Source of the DNA: an uncultured bacterium | Lineage (GTDB): Bacteria > Actinomycetota > Geothermincolia > Geothermincolales > Geothermincolaceae | Reading direction: 5' to 3' | Assembly: GCA_963765625.1 (NCBI GenBank) | Contig: CAVXXD010000006.1 | Coordinates: 371,990 to 435,989 of the forward strand | Length of the DNA stretch: 64,000 nucleotides | Shown here: piece after piece, positions 2,629 to 55,232 of the stretch | Layout: each line of letters starts with the position of its first letter | Numbering within the stretch: position 1 is the stretch's first letter | Notes under the pieces: model-generated | What the model was told of the DNA's origin: nothing | The model's database searches: none | The model's input: the letters and a program-made list of their open reading frames with translations, nothing else | Position numbers and translations under genes: made by a program

Positions 2629-2958
2629 TCACCCGTCCGGGTCGACCGTCTCCAGGTAAATCACCTTACCGGAATTCAGGTGCACCTGCCATTTCATTGT
2701 GTGTAGCACCTCTCCCTGGGGGTAATAGGTGGCGGATACCACCATTGTGTTATTGTCTCCCGTCGCTTCCCAGGTTTCGAACATTCCCGGGTTATATGCC
2801 GAACCTGGCTCGTCGAGATATTCTTTTACCAGCTCAATGGCTTTCTGCTTGTTCTTGCTGACACTACTGCTGGTCGTCAGTACGACAACAACAATAGCGA
2901 CCAGGAGGCCTGCGCCGATTACGGCGGCAATTATCCACCTCCGGCTTTTCCGGTCCAT
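2629..2958 (-). CDS. small membrane-anchored hypothetical protein
   Basis: This is a 109-aa ORF with one N-terminal TM helix (WIIAAVIGAGLLVAIVVVVL). Its start abuts the stop of the upstream gene. I recognise no family. Confidence 0.55.
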   Translation of the reverse strand: MDRKSRRWIIAAVIGAGLLVAIVVVVLTTSSSVSKNKQKAIELVKEYLDEPGSAYNPGMFETWEATGDNNTMVVSATYYPQGEVLHTMKWQVHLNSGKVIYLETVDPDG

Positions 2959-2959
2959 A

Positions 2960-3830
2960 TCACACCAACCTTTCCCGTATAACCGACGCCAGTTCGCGCA
3001 GGGGTCTTTCCACTTCGGGCGGCACGTTGCCGATGGGGGGAAGAACCCGCCTGAGTACCTCTACCACTTCGGGGCAGAACGGATATCTCCGCGACAACCT
3101 GAATGCTACGGTCCTCGCACAAACACTTGATCTCATCTGCCACTTCCTTATTGAGGTCGCACTTGTTGATGCAAACCAGGGCGGGAATGGAGAAGTGGGA
3201 AGCCACCTGGAGTATTCTCTCCAGGTCATGGAGACCGGAAAGGGTAGGCTCGGTGACCACCAGGGCCAGGTCCGTCGCCGGTGAGCGAGGCGATGACCGG
3301 GCAGCCGGTGCCTGGAGAGCCGTCCACGATGACCAGTTCTACTTTCTGGTCGATCGCGGCTCACCTGGGCTTCCATGCGCACCTGGGTCACGACCTTGCC
3401 GGAAGCTTCCTCTCCCATGAACAGCTGGCCTTCCACCAGGGGCCCATGGGGAGTTGTCATCCGGGAAATACGAGCTCCGTCGGTCATGTTGAAATCCACC
3501 GCCTCGTCCAGGCAGACCAGTTTGCAGACGCCGCACCCCTCGCAGCTGGTGGGCTCGACGCGGTAGGGCGAATCGGGGATTATCGCGTCGAAGCGGCAGT
3601 GCTCGGCGCAGAGCCCGCACTCCGTACACCTGTCAGGGTCTATCAAAGCCTTGCGTGAGACCTGGACATCAGAGAAGCGCGAGCGCGAGGGGCGGGAAAA
3701 CGATACGCAGGTTGGGCGCCTCTACATCGCAATCCGCCAGCACTAACGGTCCCAGCAGCTGGGCCAGGGCCGCGGATACCGTTGTCTTCCCGGTGCCTCC
3801 CTTGCCGCTGATCACTACCAACTGCCGCAT
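2960..3830 (-). pseudogene. MinD/CooC-type P-loop ATPase with a 2x[4Fe-4S] insert, broken by about 4 frameshifts
   Basis: Homology is spread over 4 reading-frame segments. They are MRQLVVISGKGGTGKTTV..CDVEAPNL (stop at 3669); LIDPDRCTECGLCAEHC..CEGCGVCKLVC..GEEASGKVVTQV; DQKVELVIVDGSPGTGCPVIASLTG; and DLALVVTEPTLSGLHDLERIL..INKCDLN, followed by PFCPEVVEVL. The shifts fall near 3690, 3355, 3265 and 3075. Confidence 0.7.
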
Positions 3831-33675: not shown

Positions 33676-33741
33676 TTAATCAACCATTTCCCTGCACAAA
33701 AAAACCGGCCTAAACATGCTGTTCAGGGCCGGTTTCACCAT
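33676..33741 (-). other. candidate 21-codon upstream ORF spanning the leader terminator
   Basis: GGGGAG plus 5 nt precedes the ATG at 33739-33741. The ORF reads MVKPALNSMFRPVFLCREMVD and ends at the TAA at 33676-33678, which directly abuts the AAGGAGAGGAG SD of the 1204-aa gene. Confidence 0.3.
33698..33735 (-). terminator. intrinsic-terminator-like hairpin in the 5' leader of the surface-protein gene
   Basis: In minus-strand sense the element reads AAACCGGCC-16 nt loop-GGCCGGTTT followed by TTTTTTT. It lies about 40 nt upstream of the start codon at 33658. Confidence 0.55.
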
Positions 33742-33864
33742 TCAGCTCCCCGCGGTCCAAGTGACCAGATAAGGAACGCGGATCAATGCTTTCCCTTGTA
33801 CGAAGTCGTCCGATAATATGCCCAACAGAGGTATTGCAGGTCGTCTTCGTTAATCTCTGATGTG

Positions 33865-44870: not shown

Positions 44871-44925
44871 GAAAGTGTTCGTTATATAATATTGGAAGCT
44901 GGAACCGTTCCAGAGAAGAGGAGGA

Positions 44926-46440
44926 ATGATGGAAGCACTCAACGAGAAGCTGCGCCACCTCTACAAGGCGATCGAAGACAGTGGTCTTTACATCAACCTG
45001 AACCACGACGTCCGTTTCCACGAGAAGATGGAGATACCCCTCAATCTGAACGAGACGGATACCATCGTCATCTCGGACGAGTCCTACAATTCTCCGCTAC
45101 TCTTCGCCATGCTCACCTCCGTGCTGCGCAACGGCACGATGATACTCTTCGGCTCGCCCGGCTCCGGCAAGACCACTTCGGCGGAGTTCGTCGGCGCTTT
45201 CGTCTACGGCAAGCTCTTAGAGGAAACAGCGTCGGCTTCCGGGGACGACTCGGGGGTGCTCGAGGCGATCCACGAGGCGACCATCCACGGCCACCAGGAG
45301 CTGACCGAGGAGAAGATGATCGCCCGGCCGCACCTGGGCAAGCTGATGCGCGAGGGCGAGGAGGAGATCATACCCCGCAAGTTCATGCAGTCCCCCTTCC
45401 GCATGGTCGACGAGGTGAACCGTCTGACCCCGGGACGCACCAACAACCTCCTCGAGATGATGGACCGCGGCTTCTCCGTCTACGGCGACGTGAAGATATA
45501 TGCGACCGAGGGAGTCACCTTCCTCACGGCCAACTTCAGGGATATTGCCTCCTCCGACCTGACCCCACCCTTCCTCGACCGGGTCGACGTCGGGGTATTC
45601 GCGCCCACCCTCAACCCCTACTTCCTGGAGATGGCGGGTGGCGGTGAGGACCGCAAGCTCACCGGCGATCTAGAGGCTTACCTGAAACGCCTGCGGGGCC
45701 AGGCCGAGGTCGAGCTCGACGCGGGCGACCTCGAGCGCATACGGCAGGAGATATCCGAGGTGCAGCTCGACCCGGAAGCCAGGTACATCCTCTATAACTT
45801 CATAGCCGAGATGAACGGGTGCGCGGCGGCTTCGACCGACCTCGAGCGCAAGAGCAAAGGCTTCGCGTGGTTCGTGAAGCCCCCCATCCTCTGCGCCCAG
45901 TTGGAAGACGACGCTTACGGAACCGACGAGGGGCAGCTGGGCGGCTGCCATTTCCATAATACCGAGAACATCTGTTACAAGACCGAGAACGAGGTGAGCG
46001 TCCGTTCGGGCAAGGCCATAGAGCGTTACGCCAAGGCACTGGCGTGGTTCAGGGGCAAGCAGCAGGCCGGGTTGGACGACCTGGAGGCGGTCGTCCCCTA
46101 CGCCCTCTGGTTCAAGCTCATCCCGACCGACCGCGCCTGGGCGCAGCAACCCGAGTACATGAACGACCGCATAGCCCTGGTGCGCGACCTCTTCGCCAGC
46201 TCGCGCAACCATTACATAAAGAGCCGCCACGTGGTGCAGGCACTCGACGCCTCCCTGCAGCTGTACGAGAGCGGCCTGGGCGGCGAGACGGTTAACGAAG
46301 AGCTCTTGCTCTCGGCCATCGCTTCTCTTAAGAACTACGACTCGCCCGCCAAATACCCCATAGCGACAATGCTGAGGCAGGCCTACCAGGAGCTTAAGGA
46401 CGGACGGGGCGCAGGCGTGGAGGACGGCCGGGAGGCCTGA
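44926..46440 (+). CDS. MoxR-like AAA+ ATPase with a Cys-containing insertion
   Basis: Walker A is LFGSPGSGKTT and Walker B is FRMVDEVNR. Also present are LTANFRD..PPFLDRV and the lid segment SVRSGKAIERYAKALAWF. A roughly 60-aa insert carries 4 Cys. A TATAAT -10 and a GAGGAGG SD lie upstream. Confidence 0.8.
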   Translation: MMEALNEKLRHLYKAIEDSGLYINLNHDVRFHEKMEIPLNLNETDTIVISDESYNSPLLFAMLTSVLRNGTMILFGSPGSGKTTSAEFVGAFVYGKLLEETASASGDDSGVLEAIHEATIHGHQELTEEKMIARPHLGKLMREGEEEIIPRKFMQSPFRMVDEVNRLTPGRTNNLLEMMDRGFSVYGDVKIYATEGVTFLTANFRDIASSDLTPPFLDRVDVGVFAPTLNPYFLEMAGGGEDRKLTGDLEAYLKRLRGQAEVELDAGDLERIRQEISEVQLDPEARYILYNFIAEMNGCAAASTDLERKSKGFAWFVKPPILCAQLEDDAYGTDEGQLGGCHFHNTENICYKTENEVSVRSGKAIERYAKALAWFRGKQQAGLDDLEAVVPYALWFKLIPTDRAWAQQPEYMNDRIALVRDLFASSRNHYIKSRHVVQALDASLQLYESGLGGETVNEELLLSAIASLKNYDSPAKYPIATMLRQAYQELKDGRGAGVEDGREA

Positions 46441-46446
46441 GGCGTC

Positions 46447-48048
46447 ATGCTCCTCCCCCCGCCGGAAGACCTGGAGGCGATGCTGGAGAGGGTGCGCTCC
46501 TTCTGCGGCAATCCCCGCATGATAGACCCTGAGTTCGTGACCGACCCGATGAACCACCCCTTCGCCGAGTACCTCGCCGGCAATTACGGGTACTTCGCCT
46601 GCTCGGAGAACCGCGTCTTCATCAACATCCTCGAGGTGCTGACGAGGCTGGGCGAGGAGAACATCGAGCCCCTCCTCGTCTACCAGTACCTCCACTACGC
46701 GCTGGCCCCGTTCGACATACGCACCGCCCTGCGGTTGACGATGGCTGCGAAGCTGGCGCTGGAGGAATCGGGACGGGAGGCGCACTTCGACGAGGCACGC
46801 TCTGTGCAGCGCCTCTTCTGCGACATCGTCTGCGTCACCTACGCCGCGAGACAGGGCCGGCTCGAGGATATGATTTCCCTCTACCAGGCGATCGACCGTG
46901 CGCAGGTGGCGCGAGGCGGCGGCGCCCAGGCCGACAGGCTCATGAAGTCGCTGCTCTGCCTCTACGAGGAGCTCTGGGAGTGCCGGGGGCGCCTGGCCGG
47001 GAACGTGGACGACGAGATGCGCGATGACGCGATAGCGCTGGCGACGCGCTTCCTCGAGAAGCCCTTCGCCGCGTCCGGCTGGGAGGCGAAGGTGAGGCTG
47101 CTGGCGAGCTATCTCCAGAAGTACTACGAGCAGCCGGGGCAGCTGGAGGGCGCACGCATCATGGAGCACGGCATAGACAACATGCGCTCGCGTGACACCC
47201 AGAAGATGCTGCGCAACCTGCCTTCCGGGATGGGGGTGGAGGACTTCAAGGACCTGGCGGGAGGCCTGGGGGAAGGCGAGGAGAAGGCGGCGCTGGTCTG
47301 GTACTACCGCGACCTGGCCAGGCGTTACGAGGTGCGCTTCAAGCCGGCGCGCAGCATCGGGGGCGAGGAGGTGCCTTACGCCCCTCGCAACTGGGGCATG
47401 GGCGACCCCTTCGACCGCCTCGACCTTCCTTATACCTTGTACACTACGGCAGTCGCTGTCCCGACGCTCACCACCAAGCAGTGGGAAAAGACCACGCTGC
47501 AGATAATACAGACGCGGCGCACGCCGCCGGACGTCCTGATAATCCTCGACGCCTCTTCCTCCATGACCAATCCGACCCTCAAGGTCTCCCACGCGGTGCT
47601 AGCGGGCTTCGTCATGGCCCGCAGCGCCATCAACCTGGGGGCCAAGGTTGGTTTAATCGTCTACTCCAACCAGCGCAAGAACCTGACGATCGACTTCACC
47701 TGGAACATGACGCCGATCGAGCGGGGGCTGGTCACGTATTACGGCGGAGGCACTGTCTTCCCGGTGAAGGACTTCCTCAAGATGGCGATGAAGGAGGCGC
47801 ACAGGCCGAGGCACTTCTGCCTCATATCCGATACCGAGATCGCCAACATCGAGGAGGCCGCGCAGTACCTGGGCCGCGCGCTCGAGGTGAATTTCGAGAA
47901 CTCCGGCTCGGTCTTCCTCATCGACCAGGACCGCAACCAGAAGGCGGAACTCATAAGGGAAGCAGGCTACGAGGTCTTCCCGGTGTCGCGTGGCGAGGAC
48001 CTGGTGCGGGTGGTGGCCGGCAAGGCGGAGGAGCTGTACGTATCGTGA
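46447..48048 (+). CDS. protein with an unassigned roughly 340-aa helical N-terminus and a C-terminal von Willebrand factor A domain
   Basis: The MIDAS motif is VLIILDASSSM (DxSxS), followed downstream by GGGT and ISDTE. The gene starts 6 nt after the MoxR stop. Confidence 0.8.
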   Translation: MLLPPPEDLEAMLERVRSFCGNPRMIDPEFVTDPMNHPFAEYLAGNYGYFACSENRVFINILEVLTRLGEENIEPLLVYQYLHYALAPFDIRTALRLTMAAKLALEESGREAHFDEARSVQRLFCDIVCVTYAARQGRLEDMISLYQAIDRAQVARGGGAQADRLMKSLLCLYEELWECRGRLAGNVDDEMRDDAIALATRFLEKPFAASGWEAKVRLLASYLQKYYEQPGQLEGARIMEHGIDNMRSRDTQKMLRNLPSGMGVEDFKDLAGGLGEGEEKAALVWYYRDLARRYEVRFKPARSIGGEEVPYAPRNWGMGDPFDRLDLPYTLYTTAVAVPTLTTKQWEKTTLQIIQTRRTPPDVLIILDASSSMTNPTLKVSHAVLAGFVMARSAINLGAKVGLIVYSNQRKNLTIDFTWNMTPIERGLVTYYGGGTVFPVKDFLKMAMKEAHRPRHFCLISDTEIANIEEAAQYLGRALEVNFENSGSVFLIDQDRNQKAELIREAGYEVFPVSRGEDLVRVVAGKAEELYVS

Positions 48049-48890
48049 AGCTCCCTAGGCACAGGCTGGCGAAGGGTTCCTCTTCCCTTTCGGACATGAT
48101 CAGGACCGACCGGCGCGAGGAGGAAGCGCGCGCCCGACACGCCCGCGATTTCGACCTGGGCGAGCTGATGCTCCAGGTGCGCTCGCGCGACAGCTTCGGC
48201 AAGGAGAGGGTGCGGCGGGCCATCCCGGCGCAAGAGGACGAGGAACTGGTCAAGGTGGTGGACCGGCTGTTGAAGGAAGCTTCCTCGTACTATTCGCGGA
48301 TGAATATGCAGTGGCAGCGCCAGCTGATCGGCTACCTGACGAGCCTTGGTGCCGAGGCGATGGCGAGACTGGGCCTGGGCGAGTTGGAGATACCTTCCTG
48401 CTTCGACTACGTCGGGCTGGAGGCGGACGGCACAGCGGGCCACAGTTTAGCGATAAAGGCCGAGGAGGTGGGAGACCACTGCGGGCTGAAGGCGTCTTTC
48501 CTCGTGTTGCGCGCCGGCAAGGTCGGCGATCATTGCTTCACCCACTCCGACTCCTGCATGGTGGTCTCGGGCCGGGCCGGGCACTTCCTGGGCGAGCGGT
48601 CGCAGGGGATGCGCGTTCGTGCCGGCGAGGTGGGCGACTGGCTGCTGCTGGAGTCGAAGGGGGCGCGGGCCGAGGTGAGGCGGGCCGGGAGGCTGGCCGG
48701 GTTGGACTCACACGACCTGGAGATGCACGTGGATTACGCCTCTTACGAGCTCGGCGCCCGCTCCTTCAACGCCACCATCTACGTCTACCGCGGCGTGCTC
48801 AGCATGGGCCTATCCGGCAACGGCGTCGTCTACCTGGCGCCGGAGATCGGCCCCGTCCGCACCTGCTTCGAGATGCGCCCCCTCCCCTGA
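48045..48890 (+). CDS. hypothetical protein with a predicted beta-solenoid C-terminal half
   Basis: A GTGA start/stop overlap links it to the VWA gene. About seven consecutive 18-aa units are present (AIKAEEVGDHCGLKASF / LVLRAGKVGDHCFTHSDSC / MVVSGRAGHFLGERSQGM / RVRAGEVGDWLLLESKGA ...), reminiscent of bactofilin or MinC-type beta-helices. Confidence 0.6.
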   Translation: MKLPRHRLAKGSSSLSDMIRTDRREEEARARHARDFDLGELMLQVRSRDSFGKERVRRAIPAQEDEELVKVVDRLLKEASSYYSRMNMQWQRQLIGYLTSLGAEAMARLGLGELEIPSCFDYVGLEADGTAGHSLAIKAEEVGDHCGLKASFLVLRAGKVGDHCFTHSDSCMVVSGRAGHFLGERSQGMRVRAGEVGDWLLLESKGARAEVRRAGRLAGLDSHDLEMHVDYASYELGARSFNATIYVYRGVLSMGLSGNGVVYLAPEIGPVRTCFEMRPLP

Positions 48891-50797: not shown

Positions 50798-50806
50798 ATC
50801 TGGACT

Positions 50807-51151
50807 CTACACGTCCTTGGAAATGAGTTCCGCAACGTTGTCTCTCAGGGACGGGATATCTTCCTGTACCGTTTGCCAGATTATCTCGAGATCAACTCCA
50901 AAATACTCATGAATGAGCTTATTCCGCATGCTCATCATCTTCTCCCAAGGAATCAAGGGGTTCTCTTCCTTGACGGAGTCCGGAATGGTTCTTGCAGATT
51001 CACCTATGACCTCGATGCTCCTGATAACCGCATTGACAGTCTTCTTATCTTCAGCGAAGCTCTTATAACTCATGCCCTTGATGAAGCTTTGGATGTCATC
51101 GATTGATTCGAGGATATCTTGAAGATAGTCGAGATAGTCTCTGCGCCTCAT
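50807..51151 (-). CDS. hepT: HepT-type (DUF86) RNase toxin
   Basis: The motifs are AVIRSIEVIGESA and SMRNKLIHEYFGVDLEIIW (Rx4HxY). It overlaps the upstream antitoxin gene by 4 nt. Confidence 0.85.
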   Translation of the reverse strand: MRRRDYLDYLQDILESIDDIQSFIKGMSYKSFAEDKKTVNAVIRSIEVIGESARTIPDSVKEENPLIPWEKMMSMRNKLIHEYFGVDLEIIWQTVQEDIPSLRDNVAELISKDV

Positions 51152-51456
51152 ACTGGGACCATTTCCTGAAGGATGCTTTGGCCTATTCTCGGCTTCAATG
51201 CCTTCTTGGATACCAGGTCGACTTTCACGCCTAATGTGTTGGAGAGGTATTCCTCAAGCTCAATAAACTGGAAAAGTCCGATCGGTTTGCTGAACTCCAC
51301 CAGGATATCGAGATCGCTTTCCTCGCCTTGTTCACCCTTTACGTATGAACCAAACAAGGCGATCTCTTTAACAGAGTAGTCCCCCTTTAAGACCCCTTTT
51401 TTCTCTTTAATGATTCCCTTAAGCTCTTCGATATTCTTCATCGTTCCGCCATCCAA
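51148..51456 (-). CDS. mntA: MntA-type nucleotidyltransferase antitoxin
   Basis: The segment LFGSYVKGEQGEESDLDILV carries the GSx10-DxD minimal nucleotidyltransferase motif. Confidence 0.85.
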   Translation of the reverse strand: MDGGTMKNIEELKGIIKEKKGVLKGDYSVKEIALFGSYVKGEQGEESDLDILVEFSKPIGLFQFIELEEYLSNTLGVKVDLVSKKALKPRIGQSILQEMVPV

Positions 51457-51530
51457 TCAGGCTAGTCTTTCTTGTTATTGATTATACAGCAACTCCATGA
51501 AGCGGGGCTTGCTTCGAAGTGCCTAAATAG

Positions 51531-51586
51531 TGGCGGAGGGGCCGGGATTCGAACCCGGGGGACCTTGCGGCCCAACGATTTTCAAG
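51531..51586 (-). repeat. partial copy (3' half, 56 nt, 2 mismatches) of tRNA-Ser(UGA)
   Basis: The sequence is TGGCGGAGGGGCCGGGATTCGAACCCGGGGGACCTTgCGGCCCAACGaTTTTCAAG. It ends in the anticodon loop. About 25 nt of flank 3' of the tRNA is also similar. Confidence 0.75.
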
Positions 51587-52046
51587 TGCTGGAACGTTTC
51601 GATTATGTAATTGCTGGTCAGACGGCAAATCGCTGACCTGCGGGTTTATGGGGCCGACTCGCCTGGAGTCAGCTTGAGTTACCCTGAAGCTCCTCCTCTG
51701 GGTAGCAGTTTGGGTAGCAGTCAGGTCGCAGTTCTATCTATGGCTTTTCTTCCAGAAACGCTTGGAAATGACCTATATAGAGGTATACCCTTGAGCATTT
51801 TCGCCCGTTCTGAAGGTCTAAATACCCCCTGGGAAGAAATTTCTGAGGAAGCCTGAGTAGCATCTCCATGAATGGAATCATCTTCGAAGGTTATCCTGCT
51901 GGACGGTATAATGTTGACAGTGGGCATATGCAAAATGTTCGATATAGGGCTTTCTCTCTACGTGCATCGTATTGGGGGTGATCGATGAGCTAATCGGGCA
52001 AGAATCATTTGACCAAGAAAGTGATCCTATCCAGGAGGTGGAGGAA

Positions 52047-52364
52047 ATGAGAATTTTAGTCACGCACATCTATCCCACAGCATTGCTTGGAGAGTATGTA
52101 ACGGCAGCGCTCAAGAACTGGCAGGAAAACCCCTTTCCCAGCTTTGTGAAGATGATAGGCCCCTTCTTCACAGTTGGTGAAGAAGGGCATAAATGCTACA
52201 CCATTCTCGAGATCGATAAGGGTAAAGAGGACGAAGCTTTCCAGATCATCAATAAACGCATAATAAATTTCTACCCGATTCAAGGCTTCAGGCACAGAGA
52301 AGAGAGATTGGCGACCATGGAGGAAGGCGCTGCATTGTTAAATATTGAAGCACCCTCACGCTAG
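52047..52364 (+). CDS. hypothetical 105-aa protein
   Basis: The ATG at 52047 follows CAGGAGGTGGAGG. The region has lower GC than the rest of the window. I recognise no family. Confidence 0.5.
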   Translation: MRILVTHIYPTALLGEYVTAALKNWQENPFPSFVKMIGPFFTVGEEGHKCYTILEIDKGKEDEAFQIINKRIINFYPIQGFRHREERLATMEEGAALLNIEAPSR

Positions 52365-52381
52365 ACTCCAGAGGAACCTAT

Positions 52382-52657
52382 ATGCATGAGAGCCAGTGGC
52401 CCTTACTGGTCGGGTCAATTTATTCTTTTATTTTGAGCATAGTGTTCTGGGTAGTCCTCCGCCCAAAGGTAGGAACATGGAAACCAAAGCCTGATGGGTA
52501 TGCTCACAAATTATTTAAACCGTTCGAAATGACAGGCAAGCAATACGATGAGGGGTACTTAAAATTTGCCAAATCTCATATTTCCTTTATGGGCATCTTC
52601 TTTTTCATCATGAGCATTGTTATGATGGTTGGTTTTGTAGCCATGTTCTTTAAGTAA
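52382..52657 (+). CDS. hypothetical 91-aa membrane protein
   Basis: Two predicted TM helices are present (LLVGSIYSFILSIVFWVVL and FMGIFFFIMSIVMMVGFVAMFF). The region has low GC. Confidence 0.5.
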   Translation: MHESQWPLLVGSIYSFILSIVFWVVLRPKVGTWKPKPDGYAHKLFKPFEMTGKQYDEGYLKFAKSHISFMGIFFFIMSIVMMVGFVAMFFK

Positions 52658-52741
52658 GCCTAATTCGCCTTGAACATCCTCCCGTGGGTAGCAGTCTGGT
52701 TAGCGGTCGTGATTTCGATCTTTTGCTTGCATGGGTGAAAG

Positions 52742-52797
52742 TGGCGGAGGGGCCGGGATTCGAACCCGGGGGACCTTACGGCCCAACGGTTTTCAAG
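52742..52797 (-). repeat. partial copy (3' half, 56 nt, 1 mismatch) of tRNA-Ser(UGA)
   Basis: The sequence is TGGCGGAGGGGCCGGGATTCGAACCCGGGGGACCTTaCGGCCCAACGGTTTTCAAG. After CAAG it diverges in the same way (TGC) as the copy at 51531. Confidence 0.75.
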
Positions 52798-52940
52798 TGC
52801 GGCAAAAGTTCATTCCTGAATAGAATATCGCTAATAAAAGCGGGGCTGCATAGAAGAGAGGCGCCTATTATCTCAACATAACGGCTTTCATATATTGAAG
52901 AAACTCTAATCTTCGTTGGCCCTCTTCATTATCCTCATAT

Positions 52941-53777
52941 TCATCTCCCGGAAATATGACTCCGGCCACGCTTCGACTTTCCCTTATCTGGACGAAACAC
53001 GTCTCGGCGCAATATGCCGTAGGCGTCGAAGCTGGAGCGTACGGTGAAGAGCACAGTGAGGGAAACGCTCAGGGTCACCGAAACGAAGATCACCACCATG
53101 ATGGCCAGCTGATACTTGATGGCGGTAATCGGGCTGGAGCCGCCGAGTATCTGGCCGGTCATCATGCCGGGCAGGAAAACCAGGCCGATGGTGGCCATAT
53201 TGGCGATGGTCGGGCGCAGGGCAGTTGTGAGCGACTGGCGGAAGTAGGGTACCAGGGCTTCGAAGCGGCTTGCCCCGAGGGCCAGGTCGTAACGGTAGCG
53301 GTTATCGTCGCGCCGGATGCTCTGGTAGAACTGGCTGATGCCGACAATGTTTCCGCCCAGGCAGTTGCCCAGCAGCATTCCTCCGACAGCGATGAGGTAC
53401 CTGGCGTCAAGGATGTCGTCCAGGCGGACCACCACGGCGTTGAAGTAGAGCAGGACCGCCAGGGTGGAGAGGACGAAGGATGCCATCGTCGGCAGGACGA
53501 AACGGCGGCGACTGAGCTTGCTGGATCCGATGACCGAGAAGGCGGCGAAGATGATCATGACCAGCACCCAGGCCAGGTTTATCCAGCCATTGTTCAGATT
53601 GAAAAGGTACTCCAGGAAGATTCCGACCAGTACCAGCTGCACTGTCATGCGCAGCAGTGAGACAACCGTGTCCCTGGCGATCCTGACCTTGAGGGCGAGA
53701 AAGACGGCAAGGGGGATCACCATCAGCAGCAGGCACAGCGCCAGCGAAAGGTAGGAGATGTCCTGCGCTCCCATCAC
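52941..53777 (-). CDS. ABC transporter permease of the UPF0014/FetB (YbbM) type
   Basis: This is a polytopic protein with the pattern ..MTVQLVLVGIFLEYLF..GGMLLGN..ALGAS..ATIGLVFLPGMMTGQILGG. Confidence 0.75.
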   Translation of the reverse strand: MMGAQDISYLSLALCLLLMVIPLAVFLALKVRIARDTVVSLLRMTVQLVLVGIFLEYLFNLNNGWINLAWVLVMIIFAAFSVIGSSKLSRRRFVLPTMASFVLSTLAVLLYFNAVVVRLDDILDARYLIAVGGMLLGNCLGGNIVGISQFYQSIRRDDNRYRYDLALGASRFEALVPYFRQSLTTALRPTIANMATIGLVFLPGMMTGQILGGSSPITAIKYQLAIMVVIFVSVTLSVSLTVLFTVRSSFDAYGILRRDVFRPDKGKSKRGRSHISGR

Positions 53778-55144: not shown

Positions 55145-55232
55145 TGGCGGAGGGGCCGGGATTCGAACCCGGGGGACCTTTCGGCCCAACGGTTTTCAAG
55201 ACCGCCGCATTCGTCCACTCTGCCACCCCTCC
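55145..55232 (-). tRNA. tRNA-Ser (anticodon UGA), class II with a long variable arm, CCA encoded
   Basis: I folded this by hand. The acceptor stem is GGAGGGG/CCCCTCC and the D stem is 3 bp (GCA/TGC). The anticodon stem is GCGGT/ACCGT with loop CTTGAAA. The variable arm is GGGCC-GAAA-GGTCC and the T arm is CCGGG-TTCGAAT-CCCGG, followed by discriminator G and CCA. Confidence 0.85.

Follow-up and report, generated by a model that had tools for sequence, protein, structure and literature searches.

What would a MoxR-type ATPase, a protein with a von Willebrand factor A (VWA) domain and a beta-helix protein do together when they are encoded by three consecutive genes? This question is raised by the genes g1, g2 and g3, located in a 64,000-nt stretch of DNA (hereafter, the window) and delimited by means of a mechanical list of open reading frames (ORFs) and by reading of the sequence. 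MoxR-VWA pairs are common and, to our knowledge, only for a few of them has the mechanism been worked out, in each case that of a cofactor-insertion chaperone. For the triad described here, we consider it an even bet that it constitutes one operon for a self-contained remodelling machine, which by analogy would work in the manner of NorQ-NorD, together with its own partner protein g3.

The three genes and their products

The sequence-only reading of the window had described three tightly coupled genes, and the junctions agree with that description. The g1 stop codon (TGA, 46438-46440) is followed by a 6-nt gap, GGCGTC, and then by the g2 start codon (ATG, 46447), and the g2 stop codon (TGA, 48046-48048) shares letters with the start codon of g3 (GTG, 48045) in a GTGA overlap. 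Furthermore, a GGAGG-like site is present 5' of each of the three starts. In the ORF list, g3 sits inside a longer ORF that ends at 48890, in which the GTG at 48045 is in frame; this start is supported because the g3 orthologues begin at the equivalent M-K/R-F/L-P position. The GC content of the operon (0.62-0.65) is like that of the remainder of the window.

Relatives of g1, g2 and g3 at 42-85% identity were found by word-indexed searches only in Solincola/Geothermincolales-like Actinomycetota. A scan with a g1 profile over one genome per GTDB species gave 435 candidate relatives, a number to be taken as an upper bound (tblastn E<=1e-3 within pattern-selected candidates), from which the best 80 loci were kept. 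These belong to Actinomycetota (6), Methanosarcinales, Woese-, Pace- and Nanoarchaeota, Thor-, Prometh-, Hermod- and Jordarchaeota, Thermoproteota, and Deltaproteobacteria/Syntrophia. The ORFs of the fetched loci were called mechanically from the longest start, and their N-termini may be a few residues off. With our own ORF calls and hidden Markov models (HMMs), a full-length g2 relative, N-domain included, was observed 3' of g1 in 71 of the 71 loci with more than 1.7 kb of downstream DNA, either adjacent to g1 or separated from it by at least one gene, mostly a single one of ~230-290 aa. The g1-g2 pair is a large family spread over archaea (Asgard, DPANN and Methanosarcinales) and a few bacterial groups, Deltaproteobacteria among them, and no curated model names it. 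Among the loci of the g1 scan, relatives of g3 are confined to the actinobacterial ones. In addition, a metagenome scan with a g3 profile gave 24 loci, which present the order g1-g2-g3 wherever the upstream DNA suffices; the exception is L108, which carries a truncated form of g3 and where g2 is undetectable in the 1.8 kb upstream. Complete triads with the same gene order were found in 21 loci, all of Solincola/Geothermincolales-like Actinomycetota, and five further short loci have at least part of g2 just upstream of g3. Since the three genes appear in the same order in 21 loci, the triad is more than chance, and the uncharacterised MoxR-VWA pair with a third gene, as it had been proposed from the window alone, is borne out by the strict co-occurrence of g3.

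As judged from its motifs, g1 is a MoxR/ChlI-class AAA+ ATPase with the catalytic residues intact. In the family alignment, G76-T83, D162-E163-R166, the sensor-1 residue N203, R219 and the sensor-2 residue R360 are conserved in 79 of 79 relatives, bar a few positions: T83 is kept in 77, and D218 and R219 in 78, where the single exception is an unread X. The MoxR-type Walker A, Walker B and lid motifs noted earlier hold, then, across the whole set. At the lid, AAA_lid_2 (PF17863) matches residues 354-406 with 23.9 bits vs a cut-off of 22.7, and it is the sole model of the curated library above threshold in g1; NCBIfam and PADLOC gave P-loop-level noise. The core of the protein missed the threshold of the curated MoxR-type models AAA_3 and AAA_5 (15.4 bits for AAA_5 vs a cut-off of 22), and remoter g1 relatives are annotated with PF07728/PF07726. 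A search of the PDB with the single g1 sequence returned only noise and the family profile was required; with it (alignment A3), the MoxR-like structure 2r44 was matched at 1.6e-17 and the BchI/ChlI structures in the range 5e-8 to 3e-7 (BchI 1g8p, 5.1e-8; ChlI, 1.6e-7). By analogy, we infer that g1 assembles as a hexamer and hydrolyses ATP.

The AAA+ clade of g1 carries an insert ahead of sensor 2, and the sequence-only reading had noted in g1 an insert with cysteines. The four Cys are indeed there, within a 67-aa stretch just before sensor 2, but they are not a local oddity, since the module is family-wide: the pattern C-x(15-22)-C-x2-C-H-[FY]-x(6-9)-C is kept in ~68 of the 79 relatives (C299 in 69, C341 in 67, H342 in 72 and C350 in 68) and is missing from ~11 copies of the Woesearchaeota type. 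A 17-residue loop between the second and the third Cys is the only deviation of the Solincola clade from the family pattern. The spacing at this point is C-x-x-C-H in many relatives (mainly archaeal, e.g. among L032-L084), C-x3-C-H in the deltaproteobacterial ones and C-x17-C-H in the window. CxxCH is formally a haem-c attachment motif, an assignment that we set aside; a Zn or Fe-S site seems likelier because the four Cys are conserved and no export signal is recognisable.

The AlphaFold2 model of g2, built with a 30-sequence alignment (mean predicted local distance difference test, pLDDT, 74), presents three parts: a helical N-domain with a small beta-hairpin (residues ~1-295), a low-confidence segment (300-355) and an alpha/beta domain (360-533). 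Foldseek of this model gave 52 PDB matches at E<=1e-3, all of them VWA domains, including TFIIH p44, ANTXR2, Rpn10, ArnB and NorD (9qhg_G). Each residue of the metal ion-dependent adhesion site (MIDAS), D368-A-S370-S-S372 ... T436 ... D462, is conserved in 70 of 70 relatives, and the C-terminal MIDAS VWA domain that had been recognised in the sequence is thus confirmed. No effector domain was found C-terminal to it, as g2 ends with the VWA domain. The segment that joins both domains is conserved as well (W316 in 65, D326 in 67, P339 in 69 and W346 in 66 of the 70 relatives). Because its pLDDT is low and yet it is among the most conserved segments of the family, this linker may be a binding element that takes on order only within a complex. 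The ATPase ring of NorQD is contacted by a linker and by a finger of the VWA domain (PMC9976466, PMC13036017). The non-VWA part of g2 gave no match to NorD, CbbO or ViaA when the profiles A2, A5 and A6 were run against the PDB.

The N-domain of g2 became readable by aligning diverse relatives (A5, A6), which exposed the motif HExxH-[YH]-x-x-C-P-[YWF]-D with a beta-strand before it. HExxH is intact in 45 of 71 relatives, nearly all archaeal; in 16, which are deltaproteobacterial, the catalytic Glu is lost (H[GSA]xxH); all 7 actinobacterial copies, the window included, read YQxxH...AP[F]D; and in the other 3 the motif was not found. In the window the consensus has lost its first His as well as its Glu and Cys, and with HExxH decayed to YQYLH its g2 would therefore be at most a pseudo-peptidase. 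Searched against the PDB, the N-domain profile had its best match in the minigluzincin selecase MJ1213 (4qhi, E=0.0024), in an alignment that spans exactly the edge strand and the HExxH helix. The relatives gave weak Pfam matches to Peptidase_M48 (3 of 20 members, best 0.025), DUF2201_N (0.04) and SprT-like (0.2). The sequence-only reading had left this region as helical and unassigned; it is helical, but an assignment can now be offered, since the spectrum of motif states and the match to selecase indicate a probable zincin-like fold, of the M48/minigluzincin type, with a degenerate HExxH.

For g3, the AlphaFold2 model (mean pLDDT 92.5) presents a disordered segment at residues 1-11 and helices at 15-109, and according to DSSP its strands recur every 18 residues from 135 to 279, forming ~8 rungs. 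The beta-solenoid and the 18-residue period that had been read in the sequence stand, with ~8 rungs in place of ~7, but the likeness to bactofilin or MinC does not: the models Bactofilin (PF04519) and MinC_C (PF03775) match 0 of the 27 family members at E<=10, and neither kind of structure is among the 50 Foldseek matches listed for g3. The same 27 sequences have no Pfam, NCBIfam or PDB sequence match, and the g3 profile run against the PDB gave an empty result. Foldseek of the model against the PDB returned nothing significant (best TBCC, E=0.2; C-terminal domains of CAP, E~4), and a CARP/TBCC-like identity was dropped for that reason. At the N-terminus, M1 and P4 are at least 90% conserved and L15 and E25 are invariant across 27 sequences; residues 1-10 have a pLDDT of ~40, and this peptide is a candidate for docking.

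When 1.84 billion representative proteins were searched exhaustively with an HMM of g3, 47 hits were obtained. Beyond the orthologues, these are helical-plus-repeat proteins with a-G-D-[YHW]-x-G rungs, and several of these distant homologues have in common with g3 the junction motif GYLTSxGAE...DYVG. The g3 profile reaches the protein P0154 at E=3.5e-7 (hhalign probability 95%), and P0154 matches FwdC structures at 1e-11 and the Pfam model GXGXG (PF01493) at 1.6e-7, with 31.5 bits vs a cut-off of 32.5; furthermore, a widened g3 profile (A4) reaches FwdC (6s6y_C) at E=0.021. It should be noted that g3 alone matches neither PF01493 nor FwdC/GltB and that the link to GXGXG is transitive via P0154. 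To judge from these profile matches, the beta-solenoid of g3 is most likely of the GXGXG/FwdC/GltB-C type, not of the bactofilin or MinC type. The distant homologues with readable context stand alone or on short contigs, one of them beside archaeal ribosomal protein genes, and therefore the beta-helix domain would have been recruited to the MoxR-VWA pair in the actinobacterial lineage.

Two further observations concern g3-like sequences. Variants of 229 aa (P0090-P0096; L107, 627-1316; L108, 1867-2556) diverge completely after ~residue 177 and probably arose by frameshift or truncation. In addition, a Geothermincolales contig (L010) carries, ~5 kb upstream of g1, an ORF of 146 aa (2853-3293, minus strand) with the N-terminus FPFPRNRLSETDSQLASNLLEMLRRE, which resembles the N-terminal peptide of g3, not significantly (E=0.71).

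Operon-mates of the pair and surroundings of the triad

In the archaeal subclade nearest to the g1 of the window (30-41% identity), the pair is followed or interrupted by diverse genes, often present in several copies. L001, for example, has four PQQ-type beta-propellers, L020-L025 have two proteins of the c46 family, and in L024 and L028 the proteins are unrelated to one another and number three or four. Within L024, L016 and L028, these operon-mates share their first 30 residues, with z=8-25 vs shuffles, and the remainder of the sequences gives z~0. Across loci (c46, L028, L026 and L016), the N-terminal tags give z=3.3-9.1 (z=9 for c46 vs L028), and an HMM made from the c46 tags alone had three operon-mates of L028 among its top four non-family hits in the 3,957 ORFs searched. 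A shared tag in operons that also encode an AAA+ ATPase and an HExxH-VWA protein would point to recognition directed by the tag, possibly to cleavage. As for the Woesearchaeota c46 family itself (282/263 aa), an FGE-sulfatase-like identity was guessed from the C-terminal GxGVRxxR; Pfam was empty and we make no claim on it.

Other relatives of the pair are found in different settings. In loci of Methanosarcinales and Woese-/Nanoarchaeota (L012, L013, L015, L017, L027, L030, L031, L039), g1-g2 lies inside a larger conserved operon with the order coiled-coil protein (~390 aa), classical AAA ATPase (~520 aa), g1, g2, DUF5906-like P-loop protein (~500 aa) and a long coiled-coil protein (~700 aa); close to this operon there is a TrmB-like regulator and, in some cases, an Mrr_cat nuclease. 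In Thor-/Jordarchaeota (L033, L036, L037, L042, L046, L052, L053, L057, L059, L064, L072, L075, L078, L083), the pair adjoins a single-domain AAA ATPase (356 aa) and an SMC-like ATPase (~1,120 aa). Most Thorarchaeota loci also have ScpA- and ScpB-like genes, and in the Jordarchaeales locus these genes are 3' of g2 on the same strand. A link with chromosome condensation, which the position of the pair beside SMC-ScpA-ScpB in Thorarchaeota and Jordarchaeales might evoke, was not retained, and we treat the arrangement as lineage synteny. In Deltaproteobacteria (L048, L050, L051, L061-L063, L066, L067, L069-L071, L073, L076, L080, L084), g1 is shorter (~445 aa) and a separate ORF of 225-295 aa, which clusters with g1 in all-against-all BLAST, is located between g1 and g2; the two look like a split of the longer archaeal g1 (~570 aa). 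The pair is also present in the complete genome of Promethearchaeum syntrophicum MK-D1 (NZ_CP042905.2; L074, 9791-13553), with HExxH intact (HEIAH).

The triad loci share partly conserved neighbours, upstream an amine-oxidase-like gene, a TetR regulator and an SDR epimerase, and downstream the Usp, HcyBio and NIL-Fer4 genes. The window and L006 have in common acyl-CoA synthetase and GH13 neighbours, in differing order. Because the neighbourhood is partly conserved among the triad loci, the triad behaves as a vertically inherited chromosomal module. The accessory look of the window comes from a local remnant of an insertion sequence (IS) and HepT upstream and from a low-GC islet with HepT-MntA downstream. 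The toxin remnant (HepT), the IS tail and the intact HepT-MntA pair that had been reported in the flanks were all recovered, whereas the "tRNA-linked islets" were an overstatement, there being one tRNA gene in the window. The HepT fragment and the transposase tail that it abuts look like the scar of an IS-mediated rearrangement which replaced the TetR/SDR neighbourhood of the relatives. The low-GC islet extends from 50800 to 53000 (GC 0.45-0.475 vs ~0.6 elsewhere) and, besides the HepT-MntA pair, it holds two orphan ORFs (51972-52364 and 52382-52657) without a Pfam match. As regards signals for expression, the consensus scan gave no full -35/-10 pair near the TATAAT listed below, and the promoter and terminator scan gave nothing exceeding the shuffled expectation. 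Elsewhere in the window, on the minus strand at 33719-33803, there is a cyclic-di-GMP-II riboswitch aptamer (Rfam, 53.8 bits vs a gathering score of 53.5). The features of the operon and of its flanks are collected in Table 1.

Table 1. Features of the g1-g2-g3 operon and of its flanks, in window coordinates
Feature	Position	Strand	Remarks
g1	44926-46440	+	Predicted MoxR/ChlI-class AAA+ ATPase, 504 aa
g1 Walker A GSPGSGKT, residues 76-83	45151..45174	+	G76, G79, G81, K82 invariant in 79 relatives
g1 Walker B acidic pair D162-E163 (motif DEVNR)	45409..45414	+	Invariant in 79 relatives
g1 four-Cys module C299, C323, C341-H342, C350	45820..45975	+	Just ahead of sensor-2 R360; presumably metal-binding
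g2	46447-48048	+	Putative pseudo-zincin domain, conserved linker and VWA domain, 533 aa
g2 degenerate zincin motif Y79-Q-Y-L-H83-Y-A-L-A87-P-F-D90	46681..46716	+	Family consensus HExxH[YH]xxCP[YWF]D
g2 linker, residues 300-355	47344..47511	+	Conserved P310, W316, D326, P339, W346; pLDDT 27-56
g2 VWA domain	47524..48045	+	Complete MIDAS D368, S370, S372, T436, D462
g3	48045-48890	+	Helical domain and beta-helix, 281 aa; GTG start overlapping the g2 stop
g3 N-terminal peptide and acidic helix start	48045..48134	+	Consensus M-K/R-F/L-P-R/K-P-x-F ... SL-x-E-L-L-E ... REEE
g3 beta-helix, ~8 rungs of 18 residues	48402..48887	+	Recurring motif a-G-D-[YHW]-x-G
Candidate -10 element TATAAT	44885..44890	+	Weak; 35 nt 5' of the g1 start, inside a 55-nt AT-rich spacer after the IS remnant
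HepT fragment, 58 aa	44470-44643	-	Profile positions 37-114 only
DDE_Tnp_1_4 transposase C-terminal tail, last ~45 residues	44628-44870		Abuts the HepT fragment; directly 5' of g1
HepT-MntA pair, intact	50807-51456		Within the low-GC islet
tRNA-Ser	55145-55232		Single tRNA gene of the window, near the low-GC islet

A proposed remodelling machine and the alternatives to it

The mechanistic precedent for the proposed remodelling machine is the NorQ hexamer with the VWA protein NorD (PMC9976466, PMC13036017). By this analogy, a ring of g1 would receive one g2, docked through its VWA domain or its linker, and the dead-peptidase cleft of g2, its MIDAS metal, or both, would hold g3. The N-terminal peptide of g3 and the invariant acidic residues E25 and E26 are candidate contact points. 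Hydrolysis of ATP would then pull on g2, so that g3 would be remodelled, loaded or released; a possible output could be, for example, the control of the oligomeric state of the beta-helix or of its binding to another partner.

With regard to ancestry, the pair would descend from the large archaeal and bacterial family whose g2 keeps HExxH intact. The ancestral machine may have recognised, and perhaps cleaved, tagged clients, because unrelated archaeal operon-mates share the N-terminal tag of ~30 aa, and the version of the window would bind without cutting. We propose tentatively that the triad is a peptidase-dead offshoot of a widespread and so far unrecognised AAA+ protein-processing machine (Cys4-MoxR plus zincin-VWA), which would recognise a short N-terminal tag on unrelated proteins of the same operon and, in its HExxH-intact archaeal versions, cleave it. 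It is equally tentative that such a tag-processing machine would in effect resemble an FtsH that is split and coupled to a VWA domain, with clients of its own that bear a leader tag. Several results weigh against the remodelling machine and the ancestry proposed for it. The zincin assignment consists of a motif and marginal E-values (0.0024 in the PDB; 0.025 and weaker in Pfam). Between the N-terminus of g3 and the archaeal tags the similarity is below significance (z<3), and an HMM of this N-terminus, run over the complete set of ORFs of the loci, found only g3 orthologues; a homology of g3 with the tags of the archaeal operon-mates was rejected as unsupported, and the analogy for g3 is one of position. 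Finally, distant homologues of g3 are located away from any MoxR/VWA pair, so the beta-helix domain can do without the machine.

The likeliest of the alternatives is that the triad acts as a chaperone of the classical sort, for cofactor insertion or maturation, like NorQD, CbbQO, CoxDE and RavA-ViaA, with the client encoded elsewhere and with g3 as an adaptor or scaffold, a part comparable to that of the structural GXGXG domain of FwdC and GltB. We regard it as unlikely. In Fwd and GltS, which are enzymes of several subunits, the function of the GXGXG beta-helix is structural, and the beta-helix of g3 is most likely of that kind; the inheritance of the triad also looks stable and vertical. A MoxR-VWA pair with an intact MIDAS is what such a chaperone would have, and the closest mechanistic precedents are all chaperones (PMC9976466). 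However, across the 21 triad loci no metalloenzyme recurs as a neighbour with any consistency, which leaves the client-chaperone role contemplated in the sequence-only reading without support in its classical form. In addition, no similarity of g2 to NorD, CbbO or ViaA was found outside the VWA domain, and a family-wide zincin-like domain with tagged operon-mates is ill-suited to metal insertion.

A defence or conflict role had also been contemplated, and it is somewhat less probable still: the triad would belong to the MoxR-vWA "ternary" systems and act in conflict or against phages, in an arrangement where g3 is a sensor or an effector whose release is gated by the ATPase-VWA pair. A MoxR, a vWA protein and a third conserved protein are the general theme of the systems of Kaur et al. 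2020 (PMC7159879). Moreover, the archaeal third components are variable, often multi-copy and repeat-built, such as the beta-propellers of L001; Mrr_cat and additional AAA and coiled-coil genes are present in some loci; and there are toxin-antitoxin and IS remnants in the flanks of the window. Nevertheless, the searches gave this role little support. In PADLOC-DB there are only marginal matches (E>=0.0015), at the P-loop level for g1 (DolB, 0.0015; IetA, 0.0037), none for g2 and one at 0.046 for g3. The third components of those systems (VMAP-C, iSTAND, FtsH or a vWA-fused propeller) are absent, g2 carries no effector after its VWA domain, no toxic domain is recognisable, and variable effector domains were not detected on the vWA protein or on the neighbours in the 21 triad loci. 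Relatives in viruses amount to 0 matches in 50,697 phage records and a single weak IMG/VR match. The triad is single-copy per examined locus, its neighbourhood is partly conserved and its GC is like that of the surrounding genome. A viral origin, by analogy with ATV p618/p892, was considered apart and rejected, the phage records having given no match and IMG/VR only the weak one.

Very improbable is the remaining alternative, a polymer-forming, bactofilin-like cytoskeletal beta-helix with its assembly controlled by g1-g2, for which the 18-residue rung of the g3 model, close to the rung length of bactofilins, would speak, but which is at odds with the unmatched Bactofilin and MinC_C models, with the structures listed by Foldseek and with the sequence links to GXGXG/FwdC.

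Likeness to known systems

By every motif-level test the triad is a MoxR-VWA system, yet it stands below the curated family thresholds, and it falls under no definition of the published ternary conflict systems, of the PADLOC systems or of bactofilin/MinC. Three features of the family have no description for MoxR systems in the literature searched: the Cys4(His) module in the ATPase, the probable zincin fused to the VWA domain of the partner, and the tag-sharing operon-mates in one subclade. If the proposal of a tag and a peptidase were true, this would be a new type of ATP-dependent protein-processing machine, with natural active, half-dead and dead peptidase variants for comparison. The presence of the pair in MK-D1, a cultured Asgard archaeon, makes experiments feasible. 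As for the window, the speculative label of "defence island" gives way to a concrete, testable architecture.

Among the known systems, Mg-chelatase resembles the triad in that an AAA+ ATPase has a VWA-containing partner, and the g1 profile and the archaeal relatives match BchI/ChlI and BchD, both weakly. However, g2 has no AAA-like domain, there is no BchH-like subunit, and the scores are far under the family cut-offs. With the GXGXG beta-helices (FwdC, the C-terminal domain of GltB, PF01493), g3 would share the a-G-D-x-x-G repeat type and rungs of ~18-19 residues, but it has its own helical N-domain and the junction described above, and it is not part of an Fwd or GltS enzyme. With FtsH/M48-type peptidases and minigluzincins (selecase MJ1213), the g2 family has in common an edge strand followed by an HExxH helix, and the AAA+ motor is paired with a probable zincin, where FtsH also joins such a motor to a zincin. 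In this case the differences are that the motor and the zincin are on separate polypeptides, that a VWA domain is added and that the similarity is marginal; furthermore, with the three motif residues that it has lost, the g2 of the window could not be an active peptidase.

The MoxR-vWA ternary conflict systems (VMAP, iSTAND, FtsH and beta-propeller types; PMC7159879) also have a MoxR and vWA core with a third conserved component, and the archaeal third components described here are variable and repeat-rich like theirs. In contrast, the triad has none of the defining third components (VMAP-C, iSTAND, double FtsH, vWA-fused beta-propeller), its vWA protein has no C-terminal effector, no mobility or multiplicity was seen, and its lineage and domain make-up are other.

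The comparison that carries most of our interpretation is the one with NorQ-NorD and its counterparts CbbQ-CbbO, RavA-ViaA and CoxD-CoxE. The triad departs from them in the Cys4 module of g1, in the dedicated third protein g3, in the lack of a nearby client metalloenzyme, and in the N-domain of g2, which is probably zincin-like and not NorD-, CbbO- or ViaA-like; the curated family models stay below threshold. On the other hand, all of them present a MoxR-class ATPase gene beside that of a partner that ends in a VWA/MIDAS domain, preceded by a long N-terminal part of non-VWA type, and the VWA domain of g2 matches the structure of NorD (9qhg_G). By analogy, the mechanism to be expected for the triad would be the one proposed for NorQ-NorD, namely a hexamer with one VWA adaptor and the remodelling of a linker (PMC13036017).

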